Assembly: GCA_049975025.1 (NCBI GenBank)
Contig: JBNGDU010000113.1
Span: 1 to 40,956, forward strand
Origin: Anaerolineae bacterium
GTDB lineage: Bacteria; Chloroflexota; Anaerolineae; B4-G1; SLSP01
Reading direction: 5' to 3'
Length of the DNA stretch: 40,956 bases
The notes under the pieces were generated by a model. That model worked only from the letters and a program-made list of their open reading frames with translations, did not search any database and had not been told where the DNA came from. Shown here piece by piece: positions 6,725-16,310 of this stretch; position 1 is the first letter of the stretch, and each line of letters starts with the position of its first letter. The position numbers and the translations under genes were made by a program.

Positions 6725-6828
6725 TATGTGTGTTGCGCCTGTCGTGGTCAGATCGTGGGGCTTGCGATAGCGCCTTCTACACAGTGTACAAAGCTAAGCA
6801 ATGTAGCATCGCAATGCGAGGAGAGGCA

Positions 6829-8505
6829 ATGAACCGTCGAATATGTTGGTTGTCCGCATCTGTCCTGCTGCTCTCAATTCTATTGGGCGCGTGTCAAACC
6901 GGTGGACTTCTGCCGGTTGGCAAGAAGGTCGTCGTCACGATCTACTATGGTTCCGAGAAGCGGGCGTGGCTGGAGCCCCTCGTCGAGGAATACAATGCGC
7001 AGAAGAACAAGACCGAGGCGGGATCGACCATCGTGATTGAGGCGGTGCCGATGGGATCCATAGAGTCCGGTGATGCCATCGTCGAGGAACGCATCCAGCC
7101 TACAGTTTGGAGCCCGGCATCCTCGGCCTATGTGCCTGTTGCCAACGCCAATTGGGTCGACAAACACGGCGAGGCTCTGGTCGTGGGCACGTCGAATGAC
7201 CTTGTCCTCAGCCCGGTCGTCATCGCGATGTGGAAGCCGATGGCCGAGGCTCTTGGCTGGCCCGACGAGTCCATAGGTTGGTCGGACATCGCGGAGCTGG
7301 CGGTCTCCGATGAGGGATGGGCGGGCTACGGCTATCCGGAGTGGGGTACGTTCAAGTTCGGCCATACCGCGCCCAACCGTAGCAACAGTGGGATCATATC
7401 CGTGATCGCAGAGGCCTACGCCGGCGCAGGGAAGCAGCGCGACTTGACGATGACGGATCTCCAGGATGAGGACGTGAAGTCCTTTATGAGCACGGTTGAG
7501 AGCGCTATTATCCACTACGGGTCGAGCACGGGTTTCTTCGCGACCCGCATGTTCGAGCGAGGCCCCTCGTATCTCAGCGCCGCGGTGATGTACGAGAATC
7601 TCGTGGCGGCTCAGGAGGCCAAGAGGTTGAGTGGTGAGAGCTCGCAGTTGCCTGTCGTCGCCATCTACCCCAAAGAGGGCACCTTCTGGAGCAACCATCC
7701 TTACATTACCCTCAATGCGCCCTGGGTGACCGACGAGCAGCGAGAGGCCGCGGGGATGTTTGAGGAGTTCTTGCTAGCCGAGCCTCAGCAACTCCGGTCG
7801 ATCGAGTACGGTTTCCGGCCCGCCGATCCGGCGGTGCCGTTGACCTCCCCCCTGGACCTGCGGCATGGCGTCGATCCGCAGCAGCCTCAGACGGTGTTGG
7901 AGGTGCCCTCCGCTGAGGTCGTTGAGGGTATCCTGGACCTCTGGCGGCGCGAGGCCAAGAAGCCGGTGGATCTTGTCGTCGTGATGGATGTCTCCGGCAG
8001 TATGGAAGGGGAGAAGATCAACTCGGCGCGCAGCAGCCTAATTGAGTTTATCAATCTGCTCGATGATCGCGATCGCCTGCAGATCATCCTCTTCAGCGAT
8101 GAACTTATCACGTTGACCCCCTTATCACGGCTAGGGGATAAGCGGGAGGACGTCCTGCGTCGTGTGTCCGGTGTCATAGAGGGCGGGGACACCCGCCTCT
8201 ACGATGCGATTCAGATGGCTTACGACGAGCTGCAGCAAGAGGGGGATCGCGATCACATCCGCGCGATCGTGGCTTTGACCGACGGCAACGACACCGCATC
8301 CACGCTTGGCCTCGACGCGCTGATCGACAGCGTCGGCGATCTCAGTGAGGGGGGGAACGCCACGAAGGTCTTCACCATCGCCTTCGGCAACAATGCGGAC
8401 GAGGGAATACTGGAACAGATCGCTGAAGTCACCGGTGCCAAGCAGTATGAAAGTGATCCCGACACCATTCGCAGTGTCTACGCAGATATCGCGACCTTCT
8501 TCTGA
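6829..8505 (+). CDS. lipoprotein with SBP-like domain fused to a von Willebrand factor A (vWA) domain
   Basis: The ATG at 6829 is preceded by gaggagagg. Signal plus lipobox LLSILLGAC. SBP-like region with KFGHTAPNRSNSG. vWA MIDAS DVSGSM and TDGNDT. The ORF-track start at 6730 is judged spurious. Confidence 0.75.
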   Translation: MNRRICWLSASVLLLSILLGACQTGGLLPVGKKVVVTIYYGSEKRAWLEPLVEEYNAQKNKTEAGSTIVIEAVPMGSIESGDAIVEERIQPTVWSPASSAYVPVANANWVDKHGEALVVGTSNDLVLSPVVIAMWKPMAEALGWPDESIGWSDIAELAVSDEGWAGYGYPEWGTFKFGHTAPNRSNSGIISVIAEAYAGAGKQRDLTMTDLQDEDVKSFMSTVESAIIHYGSSTGFFATRMFERGPSYLSAAVMYENLVAAQEAKRLSGESSQLPVVAIYPKEGTFWSNHPYITLNAPWVTDEQREAAGMFEEFLLAEPQQLRSIEYGFRPADPAVPLTSPLDLRHGVDPQQPQTVLEVPSAEVVEGILDLWRREAKKPVDLVVVMDVSGSMEGEKINSARSSLIEFINLLDDRDRLQIILFSDELITLTPLSRLGDKREDVLRRVSGVIEGGDTRLYDAIQMAYDELQQEGDRDHIRAIVALTDGNDTASTLGLDALIDSVGDLSEGGNATKVFTIAFGNNADEGILEQIAEVTGAKQYESDPDTIRSVYADIATFF

Positions 8506-8600: not shown

Positions 8601-9320
8601 ATGCGTTCACCATTTCTGACGGCGCTGATCCATCCGCTCAATATTCTGATGATCGGACTGGCGGTTTTTGCCGGGCTCATCTCGGCCTGGTGGCTCTTCC
8701 CAGTGGGGATCGTTTTCTGGATCATTATGGTGGTGACGGTCTCTCGGGACCGGGCCTTGCGCTTCAACGCCCAGATGCAGCGTCGTGAGCCATTGGCCCA
8801 GCGTTTCCAGCGTTACTTTGACCGCATCGAGCGTGCACAGGTGAGTATCTTCAACACGTTGGCTGCCGCGCCACCCCGCACGCGCCGAGCTCTGGAGCCC
8901 ATCCAGGGCGAGGTTGATCGCCTGACCCGTGAGACCTACGCGCTCTGTCAGAGGATGACCTCCTTGGAGAACTACCGGATCGTCTCCCAGTCCCAGACCG
9001 ACCTATCTAGCGACCTGGACCATATCAATCAGCTCATCGAGCAGACCGAGGATCCACAACTGCGACAGGATTACATAGAGTCACGCCAGGCTCTCCAGGA
9101 GCGATTGGCAAAGCTGGATGGCGTGGGAACGCAACTGGATCGCGTGGAGGCCCAGCTACTCAGCCTGGCGAACGAGATGGACGGCGTGGTTACGGAGATC
9201 GTACGGTTACAAGCTGCCGGCCCGGAGAACGCCGAGACCTTTGTGCCAGAGATCGTTAAGCGACTGCAGCAGGAGTCGGAGCAGTTGTGTGTCTTTGAGC
9301 AGCAAGCTGTAAGACTCTGA
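8601..9320 (+). CDS. hypothetical membrane protein (two N-terminal TM helices plus long coiled-coil domain)
   Basis: 239 aa. TM segments LNILMIGLAVFAGLISAWWLF and VGIVFWIIMVVTV. The remainder is heptad-like and Q/E/R/L-rich. SD ggagtgagag precedes the ATG. Confidence 0.55.
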   Translation: MRSPFLTALIHPLNILMIGLAVFAGLISAWWLFPVGIVFWIIMVVTVSRDRALRFNAQMQRREPLAQRFQRYFDRIERAQVSIFNTLAAAPPRTRRALEPIQGEVDRLTRETYALCQRMTSLENYRIVSQSQTDLSSDLDHINQLIEQTEDPQLRQDYIESRQALQERLAKLDGVGTQLDRVEAQLLSLANEMDGVVTEIVRLQAAGPENAETFVPEIVKRLQQESEQLCVFEQQAVRL

Positions 9321-9383
9321 GTTGGCTGGTGCGGGGAGTGTGAGATCTGCTGAGGGGGTCTAGGTTTGGAATCGCGGGCGGAT

Positions 9384-10091
9384 ATGAGCGAGAGAATACT
9401 GGTGGTTGAGGACGATCTCGTGTTGCGTGAGACACTCGAGTATCGGCTCTCTGGCGAGGGCTACGAGGTTTCAATCGCAGGAGATGGGTATCAGGCGTTG
9501 GATGCAGCCCAGCAAGACAGGCCGGACCTGATTCTTCTGGATGTCATGTTGCCAGGCATCGACGGTCTCGAGGTCTGCCGAATCTTGAGGCAAGAGATGA
9601 CGATGCCCATTCTGATGCTCACTGCCCGCACCGACGAGGTGGATCGGGTGGTGGGGCTGGAGATCGGCGCTGATGACTACATCACGAAGCCATTCAGCAT
9701 GCGCGAGCTCCTGGCGCGCATCAAAGCCCAGCTCCGGCGCGTTCGGATCCTCACTGAGGAGATCGATGCCGGTTTACCGCCTGTGGCTTCAGAGCCCTTG
9801 CGCTTCGATGACCTCGTGATCGATCTGAACCGGTGTGAGGTGAGTCTCCGAGACGAGGTGCTACAACTGAAACCGAAGGAGTTTGAGTTACTCGCTTCGC
9901 TGGCGCGCCGCAAGGGACAGGTGCTCTCCCGCGATCAGTTGCTCAAGGCCGTTTGGGGTTGGGAACAGTCTGGACAGAGCCGCACGGTGGACGTTCACAT
10001 CCGATGGTTGCGGGAGAAGATCGAGGAGGACCCCGGAAATCCCCGCCGGATCATCACCGTCCGTGGTATGGGATACCGATTTGATGGATAG
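9384..10091 (+). CDS. orphan OmpR/PhoB-family response regulator, paralog of 1420-2127
   Basis: [43 protein letters not shown]. Roughly two-thirds identical by eye to the first regulator. No adjacent kinase. Sits directly upstream of the pst operon. The ORF track starts at a TTG at 9366. Confidence 0.9.
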
Positions 10092-10244: not shown

Positions 10245-11915
10245 ATGCGTCGTGTATGGTTGAGTCTCATGATTCTGGTGGCGCTTTTGGTCACCGCCTG
10301 CAGTGGAGGGCAACCCGCCGCAGCACCGACAGCCACACCCGCGGCTGCGGAGCCGGAGGCTACGGAAGCGCCGACCGAGGAGCCGATGGACGATCCGTCT
10401 GGTGAAGACCAGATCAGCATCGCCGGTTCGACGACGGTGCAGCCTGTGGCGGAGAAGGTCGGTGAGGCTTTCTCCGAGATGACGGGTGTGAAGGTGGACG
10501 TCGCGGGCGGTGGTTCGAGCTCGGGCGTCAAGGCGGCCGGCGACGGCACCGCCGACATCGGCAACGCGTCGCGTGACATCAAGGACTCCGAGTTGGAGAC
10601 CTATCCCGAGCTGGTGATCCACACGATCGCCAAGGACGGTATCGCCATCGTGTCGCACCCCGAGGGCACGGTCGACGAACTGACGACGGACCAGGTGCGC
10701 GACATCTTCGCTGGTGTCATCACCGACTGGAGCGAGGTTGGTGGCGAGAATGTGCCCATCACGGTGATCAGCCGTGAGGAGGGGTCGGGCACGCGGGGGG
10801 CGTTCGAAGAGATGGTGATGGGCGAGGACGCGGCGATTACGGACAGCGCGATCTTCCAGGACAGCAACGGCAAGGTGCGCACGGCTGTGGCCAGCACGCC
10901 GAACTCCATCGCGTTCCTCTCGTTCGGTTACCTGGACAACAGCGTCCTGGCGATCTCAATCGACGGCGTCGAGCCCACGGTGGAGAACGCGGTCAACGGT
11001 TCGTACCCCGTCGTGCGCCCGCTGAACATGGTGACGCTGGGCGAGCCCGAGGGCGCCGTCAAGGACTTCCTCGACTTCGTGATGTCGCCCGACGGTCAGG
11101 CGATTGTCGTGGACGAGGGGTTCATCGCCGTGGTCGAGGGTATGGGTGAGGAATCCGCTTCCGAACCACCCGCAGAGGGCCAGGGCCAGATCAGCATCGC
11201 CGGTTCGACGACGGTGCAGCCTGTGGCGGAGAAGGTCGGTGAGGCTTTCTCCGAGATGACGGGTGTGAAGGTGGACGTCGCGGGCGGTGGTTCGAGCTCG
11301 GGCGTCAAGGCGGCCGGCGACGGCACCGCCGACATCGGCAACGCGTCGCGTGACATCAAGGACTCCGAGTTGGAGACCTATCCCGAGCTGGTGATCCACA
11401 CGATCGCCAAGGACGGTATCGCCATCGTGTCGCACCCCGAGGGCACGGTCGACGAACTGACGACGGACCAGGTGCGCGACATCTTCGCTGGTGTCATCAC
11501 CGACTGGAGCGAGGTTGGTGGCGAGAATGTGCCCATCACGGTGATCAGCCGTGAGGAGGGGTCGGGCACGCGGGGGGCGTTCGAAGAGATGGTGATGGGC
11601 GAGGACGCGGCGATTACGGACAGCGCGATCTTCCAGGACAGCAACGGCAAGGTGCGCACGGCTGTGGCCAGCACGCCGAACTCCATCGCGTTCCTCTCGT
11701 TCGGTTACCTGGACAACAGCGTCCTGGCGATCTCAATCGACGGCGTCGAGCCCACGGTGGAGAACGCGGTCAACGGTTCGTACCCCGTCGTGCGCCCGCT
11801 GAACATGGTGACGCTGGGCGAGCCCGAGGGCGCCGTCAAGGACTTCCTCGACTTCGTGATGTCGCCCGACGGTCAGGCGATTGTCGTGGACGAGGGGTTC
11901 ATCGCGGTCAAGTAG
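10245..11915 (+). CDS. pstS: phosphate ABC transporter substrate-binding lipoprotein, tandem two-domain PstS
   Basis: Lipobox LLVTAC. Two identical PBP_like_2-type units, each with GSTTV, GGGSSSG, NASRD and EGSGTRG motifs. Strong SD aggagg at 10231-10236. Confidence 0.9.
   Translation: MRRVWLSLMILVALLVTACSGGQPAAAPTATPAAAEPEATEAPTEEPMDDPSGEDQISIAGSTTVQPVAEKVGEAFSEMTGVKVDVAGGGSSSGVKAAGDGTADIGNASRDIKDSELETYPELVIHTIAKDGIAIVSHPEGTVDELTTDQVRDIFAGVITDWSEVGGENVPITVISREEGSGTRGAFEEMVMGEDAAITDSAIFQDSNGKVRTAVASTPNSIAFLSFGYLDNSVLAISIDGVEPTVENAVNGSYPVVRPLNMVTLGEPEGAVKDFLDFVMSPDGQAIVVDEGFIAVVEGMGEESASEPPAEGQGQISIAGSTTVQPVAEKVGEAFSEMTGVKVDVAGGGSSSGVKAAGDGTADIGNASRDIKDSELETYPELVIHTIAKDGIAIVSHPEGTVDELTTDQVRDIFAGVITDWSEVGGENVPITVISREEGSGTRGAFEEMVMGEDAAITDSAIFQDSNGKVRTAVASTPNSIAFLSFGYLDNSVLAISIDGVEPTVENAVNGSYPVVRPLNMVTLGEPEGAVKDFLDFVMSPDGQAIVVDEGFIAVK
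10409..11905. repeat. perfect 720-bp direct tandem repeat (10409-11128 and 11186-11905, period 777 bp) inside pstS
   Basis: Base-by-base reading of both copies found no mismatch. They are separated by a 57-bp unique linker encoding VVEGMGEESASEPPAEGQG. Confidence 0.95.
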
Positions 11916-12028: not shown

Positions 12029-12940
12029 ATGAGGCTGGCAGACATCACGGATCAAGTTGTGCGGTACGCTCTGCTGATTGCCGCGTTGCTTTCGGTCATC
12101 ATCTTGATCCTGATTGGGATTTTCACGCTCATTGAGTCTTGGGATGCATTTTCGCGAATCGGGGTCCTTGATCTTATCTTCGGCACGACGTGGCATCCTA
12201 TCCCCGATGATTTCGAGGCCAGCGAGTTTGGCATCCTTGGTATGATCTTCGCCTCGATCATCGTGACGGCTGGGGCGCTCGTGCTAGGCGTTCCGTTGGG
12301 CGTAGGCTGTGCGATCTTCCTGGCGGAGGTCGCGCCCGAAACTGTCCACAAGATCGTGCGCCCGGCGGTCGAGCTCCTGGCCGGTATCCCATCAGTGATC
12401 TACGGCTTGATCGGTATGGTCTGGTTAGTCCCGGTGATCCGCGATTTGATCCCAGTGGCTGGCAACCAAGGGTTCGGCTTCTTGGCAGCCTCCATCGTGC
12501 TGGCCGTGATGATCTTGCCGACGGTGATCAACATCGCCGAGGACGCGATTCGCGCAGTACCGCGCGAATATCGTGAAGGGTCGTTGGCCCTGGGAAGCAC
12601 CAAGTGGCAGACGATCACCAAGGTGATCGTGCCTGCCGCCCGGTCCGGCATCATTGCGGCCATCATCTTAGGGGTTGGGCGTGCATTGGGTGAGACTATG
12701 GCCATGGTTATGGTGATCGGGAACTCTACTCAATTTCCCTCGCCGCTCACGGCCAACCCGTTGACGATCTTTTTGAGCCGCGGACGTACCCTCACCGGCA
12801 ACGTTGTGATGGGTCTTAACTACGCTGCGGGCACGCACCGGAGCGCGCTCTTCGCGACGGGTATTGTGCTCTTCGTCATGATCATGATCGTTAACAGCAT
12901 GGCACGGCTCATCATCAGTCGTTGGTCACCCAAGAACTAG
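12029..12940 (+). CDS. pstC: phosphate ABC transporter permease PstC
   Basis: 303 aa, multi-TM. EAA-like loop AEDAIRAVPREYREGSLALGSTKWQTI. Operon position after pstS. Confidence 0.9.
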   Translation: MRLADITDQVVRYALLIAALLSVIILILIGIFTLIESWDAFSRIGVLDLIFGTTWHPIPDDFEASEFGILGMIFASIIVTAGALVLGVPLGVGCAIFLAEVAPETVHKIVRPAVELLAGIPSVIYGLIGMVWLVPVIRDLIPVAGNQGFGFLAASIVLAVMILPTVINIAEDAIRAVPREYREGSLALGSTKWQTITKVIVPAARSGIIAAIILGVGRALGETMAMVMVIGNSTQFPSPLTANPLTIFLSRGRTLTGNVVMGLNYAAGTHRSALFATGIVLFVMIMIVNSMARLIISRWSPKN

Positions 12941-12954
12941 AGGGGCGAGACACT

Positions 12955-14736
12955 ATGAATGCAGTGCGTGAGATGTCTTTGGAGCGAACAGAAGAGCAGG
13001 TCAAAGCGAACCTGAAGCGCCGCCGCGCTGTGGAGAAGGGTGCTTTTGGGATGCTGTGGCTCACGGGCGGCGTCGTGATCGTGGTGCTTTTCTTCGTGAT
13101 CGTCTATTTGCTGATTCAAAGCGGCAAGTTCTTCGTCGGCGACGAGGACCTGCTGGAGGACGCCGTTATGCTGGAATCCAACGCCGAGATCGCCGAGATG
13201 GTGGCGAGCGATCCGAATGCGATTGGCTATCTGTCACTGAGCTGTCTGGACGGGTCCGTCAAGCCTATCGTTCTGAACGGGGTGATGCCTTCGGTTGAAA
13301 TGGTTGGCGAGGGTTGGTATCCTATCGTGCAGGATCTCCACATGATGACACATGGGGAGATGACGCCGGTCACTGAGGCCTGGTTTGCGTTTGCCGTGAG
13401 CGAGGAAGGACAGGCCGTTGTGGCTGAAGCCGGATACGTCCCGGTGCCAAGTTCGGACTCCTATCGACCTTCGTCCGAACTCAGCGGAGAGCTCTCCATC
13501 GCCGGGTCAACCACGATGCAGTGCTTGGCTGAGAATCTGGCGGCAGCCTTCAACACCTACCATCCGGATGTGTCGATCACCATTGAGATCGAAGACTCCA
13601 CCAGCGGCATCAAGGACGCCGGCAAGGATAACGTCGACGTCGGCATGAGTTCGCGCGAGATTCGTGACTACGAATTCGTCCGTTACGATGGTCTCGTGGC
13701 GCATACTGTGGCTCAGGACGGCATTGCCATTGTCACCAACCCGCAGAACCCGGTGGGCGGCCTCACGATCAACCAGGCTCGCGACCTATTTACCGGCGTT
13801 ATCGCCAACTGGCAAGACGTTGGTGGCAATGATGCGACCGTCACGGTCGTCTCCCGTGAGCTGGGCACCGGCTCCTGGGACGGCTTCGAGAAGTGGGTCT
13901 TGAGCAAGAACGCGATGATGGCGAAAGGGTTGGATTCTGGGAACTTCCGGCTCTTCCTCCAGAATCTGTGGGCCAGCGTCAAGTTCATCTGGCGCTTCTT
14001 GACGACGCGTCCGTTGCCGGGCATGGGCGGCCACGGCGGTATCTCCACGACGATCATCACGACCGTCTACATGGTCGTTCTCACCCTTGTGATCGCGACG
14101 CCTTTGGGCGTGGGGGCTGCCATCTATCTGGTCGAGTACGCCGGTGAGATGAGCGGCAAGCAGAGCGGCTTGCTGAATAAGGTCGTCACGGTGATCCGCT
14201 TCGCCGTTGAGACGCTGGCCGGCGTGCCCTCGATCATCTACGGGCTCTTTGGCTTCGCTTTCTTCGTCACGGCGATCCGGTTGGGGCTCTCGATGATCGC
14301 GGGAGCTTTTGCCGGTGCGTGTCTTATCCTGCCGGTCATCATCCGCACGACGGAAGAGGCTCTGCTGACCGTGCCCCGCAGCTATCGCGAGGGCAGCCTG
14401 GCACTGGGCGCCACGAAGTGGCAGACGAACTATCAAGTGGTCCTGCCGGCTGCACTGCCCGGCATCGTTACGGGCATCATCTTGGGCGTCGGTCGTATCA
14501 TCAGTGAGACGGCGGTCTTCTACGTGACGTTGGGTGGTAGCATCAATATGCCTGAGTCTATTATGGACCAGGGACGGACCATGGTGCTGCATCTCTACTC
14601 CTTGATGATGGATGCGAATGCCCCGGATCCCGCGATGGGGACCGCGATTGTGATCATCTTCGTGATCGTGTTGATAAACCTGGCGATTAACTACTTCTCC
14701 AACCGGCTCTCTATGAGTCTGAGTGGGAAGTCCTAA
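12955..14736 (+). CDS. pstA: phosphate ABC transporter permease PstA carrying a ~270-aa PstS-like (PBP) domain in the TM1-TM2 loop
   Basis: The ATG at 12955 follows agagggg. TM1 LWLTGGVVIVVLFFVIVYLLI. An inserted PBP-like region spans 13129-13941. The canonical PstA core follows (TEEALLTVPRSYREGSLALGATKWQT). The ORF-track TTG at 12922 overlaps pstC. Confidence 0.85.
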   Translation: MNAVREMSLERTEEQVKANLKRRRAVEKGAFGMLWLTGGVVIVVLFFVIVYLLIQSGKFFVGDEDLLEDAVMLESNAEIAEMVASDPNAIGYLSLSCLDGSVKPIVLNGVMPSVEMVGEGWYPIVQDLHMMTHGEMTPVTEAWFAFAVSEEGQAVVAEAGYVPVPSSDSYRPSSELSGELSIAGSTTMQCLAENLAAAFNTYHPDVSITIEIEDSTSGIKDAGKDNVDVGMSSREIRDYEFVRYDGLVAHTVAQDGIAIVTNPQNPVGGLTINQARDLFTGVIANWQDVGGNDATVTVVSRELGTGSWDGFEKWVLSKNAMMAKGLDSGNFRLFLQNLWASVKFIWRFLTTRPLPGMGGHGGISTTIITTVYMVVLTLVIATPLGVGAAIYLVEYAGEMSGKQSGLLNKVVTVIRFAVETLAGVPSIIYGLFGFAFFVTAIRLGLSMIAGAFAGACLILPVIIRTTEEALLTVPRSYREGSLALGATKWQTNYQVVLPAALPGIVTGIILGVGRIISETAVFYVTLGGSINMPESIMDQGRTMVLHLYSLMMDANAPDPAMGTAIVIIFVIVLINLAINYFSNRLSMSLSGKS

Positions 14737-14760: not shown

Positions 14761-15534
14761 ATGACAGCTTCTGAGATCAAACTTGAGGTTCAAGGATATA
14801 ACCTCTATTACGGTTCGTTCAAGGCGCTGGAGGATATCGCCGTTCAGATTCCGGCGCGGCAGGTGACAGCGATCATCGGCCCATCCGGATGTGGTAAGAG
14901 CTCCTTCTTGAGGACCTTTAACCGGATGAATGACTTGATTCCGGTTGCCCACGCCAACGGCGAGGTGATGATGGATGGCGACGATATTTTCTCAATGGAT
15001 GTCGTTGATCTGCGCCGCCGTGTAGGTATGGTCTTTCAACGTGCCAATCCATTCCCGAAGTCGATCTTCGACAACGTGGCGTATGGCCCGCGAGCCGGCG
15101 GAGTACGGGACCGCAACAAGCTCAACGGGATCGTGGAGCGTAGCCTTCGCGGCGCAGCTGTCTGGGATGAGGTCAAGGATGATCTAGGCAAGTCCGGGTT
15201 GGCGCTCTCCGGCGGTCAGCAGCAACGTCTCTGTATCGCCCGCGCGCTAGCGGTTGAACCCGAAGTCATCCTGATGGACGAGCCCGCCTCGGCACTCGAC
15301 CCCATCGCCACGCTGAAGATCGAGGAACTGATCCGCGAGCTCAAAGAGGAATACACGATCGTCATTGTCACCCACAACATGCAGCAGGCAGCCCGTGTCT
15401 CGGACTTCACGGCCTTCTTCTACACTGATGAGAGTCGAACCGGACAACTTGTCGAGTTCGGTCCGACCAAGAAGATCTTCACCAACCCCGATGATGAGCG
15501 GACGGAAGATTACATCACAGGGCGCTTTGGGTAG
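14761..15534 (+). CDS. pstB: phosphate ABC transporter ATP-binding protein PstB
   Basis: Walker [10 protein letters not shown], signature LSGGQQQRL, Walker B ILMDEP, C-terminal YITGRFG. Confidence 0.95.
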
Positions 15535-15647
15535 AGGTGTGGAAGGGCTCTTGGTTTTCTGGAGTCTTAGGAACCCGACAAAGCTCAGGACATGTCAGGC
15601 TTCGCTGTATCCCCCTGGGTGGCATGGGTGGAAATTAGGGGTAAGTT

Positions 15648-16310
15648 GTGATCACGAAACCTAGAGAGACGTTCCGCCGTGAATTGGGGCAGTTGCTCGA
15701 CCAGGTCTTGGCGTTGGGCAGTATGGTCGAGGACGCGATATTGGTCTCGGTAGCGATGTTGAAGAAGCGGGATATCGAGGGATCCCGTCGCATCATCGAA
15801 CGTGATCAGGAGATCAATGCGAAGCGATTTGAGATTGAGGATCAAGCGCTTGCGCTCATCGCCCTGCATCAGCCTGTGGCGAGGGATCTGCGGCTTCTCG
15901 GCGCGATCTTGGAGGTAGCCACCGAGCTCGAGCGTATTGGCGATTATGCCAAGGGGATCGCCAAGGTCAACGTCCTGATGGGAGATGCACCGCTGCTCAA
16001 GCCACTGATTGACATACCTTTCATGGCGGGGAAAGCGATGGACATGCTCCGTCAGAGCTTGGACGCTTTCGTGTCACGGGATATCCAGGCGGCTCAGACC
16101 ATCCCCGCGCTGGATGATGAGGTGGACGCACTCTACAATCAGGTCTACCGTGAGCTGATCACCTACATACTGGACGATCCGCGATGTATTGAGCAGGCCA
16201 ATCACCTCCTCTGGGTCGCGCACAATCTGGAGCGGGCGGCGGACCGCGTTTCCAATGTCTGTGAGAGGACGATTTTCATGGTGACGGGGAAGATGCAGGA
16301 ATTGAACTGA
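15648..16310 (+). CDS. phoU: phosphate signalling complex protein PhoU
   Basis: 220 aa with a GTG start. Two PhoU repeats with E(L)ERIGDYA and NLERAADRVSN motifs. Lies downstream of pstB. Confidence 0.9.
   Translation: MITKPRETFRRELGQLLDQVLALGSMVEDAILVSVAMLKKRDIEGSRRIIERDQEINAKRFEIEDQALALIALHQPVARDLRLLGAILEVATELERIGDYAKGIAKVNVLMGDAPLLKPLIDIPFMAGKAMDMLRQSLDAFVSRDIQAAQTIPALDDEVDALYNQVYRELITYILDDPRCIEQANHLLWVAHNLERAADRVSNVCERTIFMVTGKMQELN

Follow-up and report, generated by a model that had tools for sequence, protein, structure and literature searches.

Why is a phosphate permease of an uncultured bacterium so much longer than its homologs? The question is raised by the pstA gene of a pst operon in contig JBNGDU010000113.1 (assembly GCA_049975025.1; Anaerolineae, Chloroflexota), whose 40,956 nucleotides are referred to here as the window. 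The comparisons described below confirmed that the first periplasmic loop (P1) of this PstA holds a complete, circularly permuted binding domain of the PstS type. The domain differs from the usual PstS in being permuted and in being embedded between the first two transmembrane segments of PstA (TM1 and TM2) rather than made as a separate secreted or lipid-anchored protein. The transporter is a lineage-restricted, receptor-fused ATP-binding cassette (ABC) importer with an unusual topological solution, and the arrangement is real and conserved within a small set of uncultured Anaerolineae.

A circularly permuted PstS domain lies within the PstA permease

The pstA reading frame spans positions 12922-14736, giving 604 amino acids from a TTG codon or 593 from the ATG at 12955; the 593-residue form is identical to the protein deposited at NCBI (P0001), whereas ordinary PstA in related Chloroflexota has ∼333 residues. 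The protein is assigned to PstA by a score of 231.3 bits against TIGR00974 (cutoff, 193.45), compared with 141 bits against the PstC model (cutoff, 196), and PF00528 matches residues 422-595. The six helices of a PstA were recovered by hydropathy, with TM1 at approximately residues 28-62 (peak, 2.98), the next hydrophobic segment at 361, and TM2-TM6 following; they are also present as helices in the AlphaFold 2 (AF2) model, the membrane part of which is of low confidence. The EAA coupling motif, EEALLTVPRSYREGSLALGATKWQT, was read in the sequence and is nearly invariant across the family. Between TM1 and TM2, that is, in the first outward-facing loop, lie ∼300 hydrophilic residues, referred to below as the insert. 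The stretch ahead of TM1 is positively charged (KANLKRRRAVEK), and the sequence is consistent with a topology that keeps the N terminus inside and places the binding domain outside the cytoplasm.

PF12849 (PBP_like_2) matches PstA in two stretches with 112 bits against a cutoff of 27, and TIGR02136 gives 180-184 bits, below its cutoff of 206.6 because the permutation splits the linear profile. When the 271 residues flagged in an initial reading of the window, made from the sequence alone, were compared by BLASTP with the neighboring 556-residue PstS-PstS protein, a single collinear alignment was obtained that runs over the junction between the two units (PstS residues 195-457; 40% identity; E = 1e-62); each single PstS unit gave separate partial matches only. 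The first piece of the insert aligns to residues 195-296 of the neighboring PstS and to residues 144-245 of 4Q8R. A hidden Markov model of the PstS unit, 244 positions long and built from non-permuted units, was then searched against insert sequences that had been doubled. The doubled window insert matches profile positions 2-243 in one piece with 275 bits, compared with 303-407 bits for genuine PstS units. All 21 PstA inserts examined present profile positions 143-243 first and 2-142 second, and in doubled form each gives one end-to-end match. This one-piece match shows that the permutation is exact, with nothing lost or duplicated. Likewise, the non-permuted PstS structures 4Q8R, 4GD5, 1TWY, and 4EXL match the insert in two swapped stretches, and 4H1X matches it in one. 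The sequence-only reading had proposed both the permuted order within the PstA loop and its agreement with the order across the pstS unit junction; BLASTP, the profiles (including the PF12849 search that it had suggested), and the predicted fold all bear this out.

The fold of the domain alone was predicted with AF2 from 39 sequences, among them tandem PstS proteins that align across their junction. The mean predicted local distance difference test score (pLDDT) was 90.7 and the predicted TM-score was 0.85; in the full-length PstA model, the insert reached a pLDDT of 85-92 and the membrane part 40-55, and no statement on the pose of the domain relative to the membrane was drawn from that model, in which the membrane part is unreliable. 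Foldseek placed 4H1X first among the matches to the modeled insert (224 columns; TM-score, 0.66/0.71; E = 4e-24), compared with ∼150 columns, a TM-score of ∼0.4, and weaker E-values for non-permuted PstS structures; chains of N-methyl-D-aspartate (NMDA) receptors were weak matches only. The model thus predicts the bilobed fold of a type II binding protein for the insert, the outcome that the sequence-only reading had anticipated for PstA modeled alone. The membrane part matched chains A and B of Escherichia coli PstSCAB (9K3X, 9K3S, and 9K3Y), and OpuA chains were also among its matches.

The phosphate-ligand positions are kept in the window insert

In Clostridium perfringens PBP-1, phosphate is held by nine ligand residues, S11, T12, S13, S41, S59, R125, S129, G130, and T131 (PMC5381212). 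These were mapped through a HMMER alignment to 4Q8R and through the profile alignment onto S185, T186, T187, S215, S233, R301, T305, G306, and S307 of the window PstA. The window residues (S T T S S R T G S) match six of the ligands exactly and differ at the other three by an exchange between Ser and Thr. Judged from this mapping, all nine positions are chemically kept and the putative site is not degenerate. The suggestion of a possibly degenerate domain therefore does not hold for the window, degeneration being confined to some relatives. The accompanying remark that the ligand motifs are only partly kept was right about the arginine lost where GSGTR has become GTGSW, but this residue, the equivalent of R132, is outside the list of nine, the ligand R125 being retained in SRE; the remark was wrong about EDSTSG, which still holds the ligand serine equivalent to S41.

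Across an alignment of 23 insert sequences, four residues (G184, S185, R234, and G306) are invariant and two more (S233 and R301) are nearly so. In one subclade of ten sequences (L002, L006, L008, L010-L014, P0021, and P0023; subclade A), the nine ligands are kept with Thr/Ser swaps at S13 only, and the arginine of the YPxxR motif is retained. In the group to which the window belongs, R132 is replaced by Trp, and the YPxxR arginine is replaced by Gln, Thr, or His. The insert of locus L004 (P0028) forms a separate early branch that keeps both arginines and has lost S41, S129, and T131. Among the free PstS units of the clade, by comparison, the ligand positions are invariant (17/17), the R132 equivalent is present in 17/17, and the YPxxR arginine is present in 16/17.

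Both ends of the domain join the permease through its C-lobe

The ligand residues of the C-lobe (R125 and S129-T131) all come before the helix that is followed by the cut, so that both new termini fall on the C-lobe and the N-lobe is left untethered. For comparison with the docked complex, the E. coli PstS sequence was aligned to the profile; its numbering agrees with that of the ligands and with ∼20 residues named in the cryo-electron microscopy (cryo-EM) paper. The cut falls between approximately N153 and T165, where E. coli PstS has an extra loop, and K167, P169, and K175 lie 3-11 residues past the new N terminus in the alignment. In the cryo-EM structures of E. coli PstSCAB, the P1 loops of PstA and PstC, which connect TM1 and TM2, extend up to the docked PstS, whose C-lobe lies over PstC, and each membrane subunit has its TM1 packed against TM2-TM6 of its partner (PMC12976172). 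Furthermore, PstS K167C cross-links to PstC D63C, and P169 and K175 of PstS contact PstC (PMC12976172). Given this packing and the position of the C-lobe, TM1 of PstA should emerge on the PstC side, beneath the docking position of the C-lobe. There, the chain appears to enter the permuted domain through a surface loop whose counterpart in E. coli PstS, by alignment, faces the permease, and a roughly canonical docked pose fits both the alignment and the published contacts. The proposal that permutation brings both termini to one face was broadly correct and can be made more exact: the chain is cut in a surface loop of the C-lobe, and this loop aligns to the PstC-contacting stretch of E. coli PstS.

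A probable single, old insertion in a clade with variable tandem pstS genes

The survey of long PstA proteins that the sequence-only reading had suggested was carried out at several levels. A word-indexed protein search recovered ∼28 clusters (at the 90% identity level) of proteins of 587-606 amino acids that combine PF12849 with PF00528 and reach down to 50% identity. They come from NCBI, JGI, ENA, and Logan assemblies, and all clusters with an organism name are labeled Anaerolineae. Among 185,579 species-representative genomes, a pattern drawn from the insert-TM2 junction occurs at nine loci in seven, all of them metagenome-assembled genomes (MAGs) of Anaerolineae/Chloroflexota, one of them labeled Thermoflexus sp. 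An exhaustive search of 1.84 billion cluster representatives with the profile showed that at 50% identity a single representative stands for the whole family. When the insert alone was the query in the word-indexed protein search, mostly ordinary PstS was returned, and the fragment P0024 was the only member of the long-PstA family. Other candidates for a receptor-bearing permease were rejected: of the Pst permeases with 600-1100 amino acids in the profile search, those checked (P0099, of 611 amino acids, and ten scanned proteins, 628-988 amino acids) are PstC-PstA fusions with two PF00528 domains and no binding domain, and no binding domain was found in the 557-residue P0080.

When the units were de-permuted and placed in a neighbor-joining tree, a single clade (bootstrap, 74/100) held the PstA inserts, which branch in part as their cognate PstS units do (for example, L012 with L014, and L006 with L010 and L011). 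Together, the monophyly and the branching like that of cognate PstS indicate a single old insertion that has probably been inherited vertically. The inserts are on average ∼43% identical to the PstS units of the clade, and that of the window is ∼40% identical to the neighboring PstS. Thus, a direct link to the adjacent tandem pstS, as put forward in the sequence-only reading, was not upheld. The two units of the window pstS (10409-11128 and 11186-11905) are 100% identical over 720 nt with a period of 777, separated by a unique in-frame linker of 57 nt; the inserts are monophyletic; and relatives with a single pstS unit also carry the insert. The window tandem is either a very recent duplication, or the product of gene conversion, or a copy number that cannot be fixed by short-read assembly. 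Upstream of long pstA genes, one pstS unit is found in L002, L004, L010, L011, L012, and L014, two in L006/L009 (at least two in L005), and three in L008 and L015. Within a genome, PstS units are 84-100% identical, compared with a mean of 75% between genomes, and the tree clusters the units by genome, so that the arrays are either young and dynamic or homogenized by gene conversion. One and the same PstA (P0028) is preceded by a single-unit pstS in one metagenome (L004, 3317-4210) and by at least two units in another (L005, 3-1361), which means that the unit number varies between very close strains.

Nevertheless, the general route proposed, in which permutants arise by tandem duplication, gains from this clade: two- and three-unit PstS proteins, the expected intermediates, are common here and also occur beyond it. 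On this sequence evidence, the neighboring tandem pstS illustrates the type of intermediate from which a permutant could be derived and is not itself the source.

Constraint on the insert and its tethers

Across the related loci, identity to the window copy is 64-77% for PstS, 67-83% for PstC, 65-82% for the PstA core, and 75-88% for PstB, and it is 39-49% for the insert. Ratios of nonsynonymous to synonymous substitution (dN/dS), estimated by the Nei-Gojobori method for two close pairs, were 0.10 and 0.096 for the insert, 0.05 and 0.03 for the membrane core, 0.03-0.04 for pstC, and 0.11 for phoU; these values are rough because dS exceeds 1 in nearly all pairs (0.7-0.8 for the membrane core and pstC of L018-L019). 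The insert is under purifying selection and clearly constrained, if less strongly than free PstS. Among the 23 sequences, invariant positions make up 30% of the N-side tether (residues 55-64), 20% of the C-side connecting block (residues 317-362), 7-9% of the binding domain, 0% of the internal Ser/Pro linker, and 49% of the TM2-TM6 core. Both tethers are thus more conserved than the domain that they hold. The view of a tethered, receptor-like domain advanced in the sequence-only reading is supported.

A resident receptor and the alternatives

With somewhat better than even confidence, we favor the reading that the insert works as a phosphate receptor resident in the transporter, held by two tethers and supplying PstC/PstA in cis in addition to the lipoprotein PstS. 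In favor of it are the predicted fold, the retained ligand positions, the constraint on the insert together with its age and monophyly, the position of the cut, the conserved tethers, and the precedents of S. pneumoniae Pst2 and GlnPQ. The PstA chain leaves the membrane after TM1, enters the binding domain through the C-lobe surface loop, passes through the ancestral C-terminal part, the Ser/Pro linker, and the ancestral N-terminal part, exits the C-lobe near the entry point, and returns through two helices to TM2. The untethered N-lobe would be free to open and close, and the domain would lie over the periplasmic face of PstC/PstA in approximately the orientation of a docked free PstS. Phosphate would be bound by the usual nine-residue hydrogen-bond network and released into the PstCA pathway in the ATP cycle, and the built-in receptor would work beside the lipid-anchored PstS of one to three units that is encoded upstream. 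Several observations weigh against such a receptor. The pose is taken from E. coli contacts, and the membrane part of the full-length model has a pLDDT of only 40-55. The inserts share a mean pairwise identity of 50.9%, compared with 75.9% for the free PstS of the same genomes. The window insert has W308 at the R132 equivalent and Q126 at the YPxxR arginine, and true ligands have been lost within its subclade (R125 in P0006 and P0007; T131, replaced by Leu, in P0009, L015, and L016). A separate pstS is present at every locus readable upstream of pstC (the window, each of eleven loci that are complete, and L017 and L018 with their truncated pstS), so that free PstS has not been displaced by the resident domain. 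Finally, spirochaete PstA proteins with inserts that resemble the C-lobe only, and so are unable to bind phosphate, demonstrate that a nonbinding role exists.

Alternatively, the insert may be a pseudo-receptor or docking module, with the PstS fold kept but phosphate no longer delivered, and may serve as a fixed platform, lid, or gate by which free PstS is positioned or regulated, or couple the state of the receptor to PhoU/Pho signaling. Rapid evolution relative to free PstS, loss of ligands in several relatives, the second-shell Arg-to-Trp/Gln changes in the subclade of the window, the pstS at every locus readable upstream of pstC, and the C-lobe-like spirochaete repeats devoid of the N-lobe ligand motif all point in this direction, as do tethers that are conserved and look rigid rather than floppy. 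However, the nine ligand positions are kept in the window and ten relatives and are the best conserved of the insert, which is hard to explain without binding, and a dN/dS of ∼0.1 signifies constraint that fits either role; we consider such a pseudo-receptor rather unlikely, though it is the main rival. A change of specificity or affinity, toward another oxyanion or toward much weaker phosphate binding that would provide a second kinetic regime beside free PstS, could account for an intact first shell in combination with the loss of two arginines that are invariant or nearly invariant in the free PstS of the clade; W308 is shared across the subclade. Among PstS of this kind, differences in the discrimination between phosphate and arsenate are known (PMC5381212). 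Yet the first shell is unchanged in the window, genes for arsenate, phosphite, or phosphonate were not seen adjoining the operon there, and the YPxxR arginine is intact in subclade A. We consider such a shift improbable. That the architecture is an artefact, produced when a pstS fragment was placed in pstA during assembly, or is the decaying remnant of a recent recombination between pstA and the tandem pstS beside it, might be suspected of a metagenome-assembled contig with a perfect 720-nt repeat next door, of the type that confuses assemblers. The comparative data exclude an assembly artefact: the same architecture recurs in the ∼28 clusters from four sources and at the nine loci in seven species-level genomes, including relatives with a single pstS. 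The insert is, moreover, only 40% identical to the neighboring PstS, in frame, confidently folded in the model, and constrained (dN/dS, ∼0.1), and we regard the chance of an artefact or relic as negligible. Returning to the working receptor, it is also imaginable, though fairly unlikely, that the domain, kept in place by its two conserved tethers, occupies the docking site permanently and that the one- to three-unit PstS acts as an antenna that passes phosphate to it or docks on it instead of on PstC/PstA. If so, the transporter would never need a diffusing receptor, which would change how the Pst system works; we know of no receptor-to-receptor relay in any ABC importer. On this reading, the clade would in addition retain the plausible stages of permutation by duplication next to one another, namely, single, tandem, and triple PstS and a loop-inserted permutant.

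Relation to known transporters and binding proteins

No description of a PstS domain inside PstA or PstC, or of circular permutation of PstS, was found in the open-access full-text literature, and the impression of the sequence-only reading that no described Pst system has this arrangement agrees with that result. Among amino acid and osmolyte ABC importers, the tethered receptors known to us are terminal fusions. Functionally, the nearest systems are the type I importers GlnPQ and OpuA, which resemble the long PstA in that a single polypeptide comprises the translocator and a receptor on the outside of the membrane. OpuA has its domain at the C-terminal end, and in both importers the attachment is through flexible linkers, without a separate binding-protein gene. 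In contrast, the insert is held by two conserved tethers (20-30% invariant) rather than by a terminal flexible linker, there is one domain per PstC-PstA heterodimer, a free lipoprotein PstS coexists with it, and the transporter belongs to the phosphate family. The GlnPQ domains, which are tethered to the translocator and thereby provide a high local receptor concentration, are non-permuted and N-terminal to the membrane domain (PMC8025302), whereas the PstA domain is permuted and lies inside a loop. A receptor in the middle of a membrane subunit would be geometrically possible only because the permutation is at a surface loop that, by the alignment, already faces the permease. In the long PstA, nature provides a conserved case of permute-then-insert, a design principle familiar from engineered biosensors, and with it the phosphate family joins the importers with built-in receptors.

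Other likenesses are more partial. The P2 loop of MalF is also a large periplasmic loop domain in a type I importer subunit that contacts the binding protein; however, it lies between TM3 and TM4, does not have a binding-protein fold, and does not bind substrate. In ionotropic glutamate receptors, a bilobed binding-protein fold is likewise joined to membrane helices at two points, but there the membrane segments interrupt a non-permuted domain (S1/S2), whereas in PstA a permuted domain interrupts a membrane protein. E. coli PstSCAB (9K3X, 9K3S, and 9K3Y; PMC12976172) is of the same family with the same subunits, and the P1 loop, which hosts the insert here, reaches the docked PstS; in E. coli, the PstA P1 loop is short, and the separate, periplasmic PstS docks only transiently. 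The covalently preassembled receptor-translocator complex could ease structural work on the transient docked state of PstS and PstCA. A binding protein with a divergent, permuted topology is described for Treponema pallidum Tp0684 (MglB-2), which is a free lipoprotein of another, glucose-binding class (PMC4990184).

The closest structural relative is PstS2 of Streptococcus pneumoniae (4H1X), a natural PstS permutant in which the nine ligand positions are kept. Like P0171 and other free lipoproteins of the same Firmicute family, it is collinear with the permuted order. The S. pneumoniae Pst2 system is active in phosphate uptake (PMC4913102), a precedent for the conclusion that a permuted PstS can serve a Pst transporter. 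In addition to being free lipoproteins, proteins of the PstS2 type are cut ∼30 residues earlier (at approximately profile positions 112-118, compared with 142/143 in the insert), and in the tree they fall among Firmicute PstS, apart from the PstA inserts, which indicates that the permutation arose independently; a common origin with the PstS2 type (4H1X and P0171) was rejected on these grounds. Free permuted lipoproteins of this kind include P0171, P0136, P0143, P0172, P0141, and P0132, and P0256 is a tandem of two permuted units. In the open-access literature, no paper remarking on free circularly permuted PstS of the PstS2/Firmicute type was found.

The pst operon and its neighbors

The pst operon occupies 9.3-16.3 kb of the window on the plus strand, with genes for a regulator, PstS, PstC, PstA, PstB, and PhoU (Table 1). 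The order pstS-pstC-pstA-pstB(-phoU) was found in the window and in all related loci, and in the relatives the position upstream of pst is occupied as in the window. Scans for promoters and terminators in the operon yielded nothing above the shuffled expectation.

Table 1. Features of the window pst operon and of the long PstA
Feature	Position	Strand	Basis or remark
OmpR/PhoB-type response regulator	9366..10091	+	PF00072 and PF00486; upstream of pst genes
pstS, tandem two-unit lipoprotein	10245..11915	+	TIGR02136, 495 bits in 2 stretches; lipobox VTAC
pstC, 303 amino acids, ordinary length	12029..12940	+	TIGR02138, 305 bits (cutoff, 196)
pstA, long form, 593 amino acids	12955..14736	+	TIGR00974; PF00528 and PF12849
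TM1 of PstA, residues 31-54	13045..13116	+	Hydropathy; AF2 helix
N-side tether, residues 55-63, QSGKFFVGD	13117..13143	+	Between TM1 and binding domain
Binding-domain piece 1, PstS C-terminal part, profile 143-243	13144..13446	+	hmmsearch on doubled insert
Ser/Pro-rich linker, ancestral C terminus to ancestral N terminus	13447..13488	+	Highest entropy; no modeled secondary structure
Binding-domain piece 2, PstS N-terminal part, profile 2-142	13489..13911	+	Carries all nine ligand positions
C-side tether, connecting helices and pre-TM2 segment RFLTTRPLPGMGGxGG	13912..14040	+	AF2 helices 318-328 and 331-350
TM2-TM6 core of PstA with EAA motif	14041..14733	+	PF00528; Foldseek to E. coli PstSCAB
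pstB ATPase	14761..15534	+	PF00005
phoU	15648..16310	+	PF01895, two repeats

Two further genes are conserved upstream neighbors of the operon, with counterparts also upstream of the pst genes in L002/L003. One (6730-8505) encodes a protein with an SBP_bac_11 solute-binding fold and a von Willebrand A domain, and the other (8601-9320) encodes a 239-residue protein with no Pfam match above threshold. Between pstB and phoU, a gene of the LMWPc type (low-molecular-weight phosphatase/arsenate reductase) is present in L002, L004, L006, and L018 and missing from the window (15535-15647) and L017.

Other Pst proteins of unusual architecture

Long proteins of this kind are labeled plainly "PstA" by annotation pipelines, which miss the extra domain, and several other unusual Pst proteins were encountered. 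P0031 (L001, 6001-8385) is a PstC with two tandem permuted PstS units in its own P1 loop; its neighbors are a normal 312-residue PstA and one single pstS. It is the sole example in the databases and has lost the ligand arginine in both units. These units do not group with the PstA inserts in the tree, and a common origin of the two is not supported (bootstrap of the joint clade, 12/100). P0276 (705 amino acids) is a membrane-anchored, non-permuted PstS joined via several hydrophobic helices to the N terminus of PstC, a terminal fusion of the GlnPQ kind within the phosphate family. For neither architecture was a description found in the open-access full-text literature.

Eight PstA proteins of 481-523 amino acids (P0274, P0345, P0386, P0282, P0287, P0340, P0385, and P0319) carry a different P1-loop insert of ∼240 residues; four of them have an organism label, in each case a Spirochaete MAG. 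In seven of the eight, the insert consists of two repeats that resemble only the core of the PstS C-lobe (profile positions ∼66-190 and 85-130), and the N-lobe ligand motifs are absent. Three of these proteins were scanned with PF12849, which appears in two, just under threshold in both. Finally, P0019 (L008, 5182-7353; 720 amino acids), whose gene adjoins a three-unit pstS, has an extra hydrophobic insertion of ∼125 residues with several predicted helices in the first cytoplasmic loop, directly after the EYAGEM motif.

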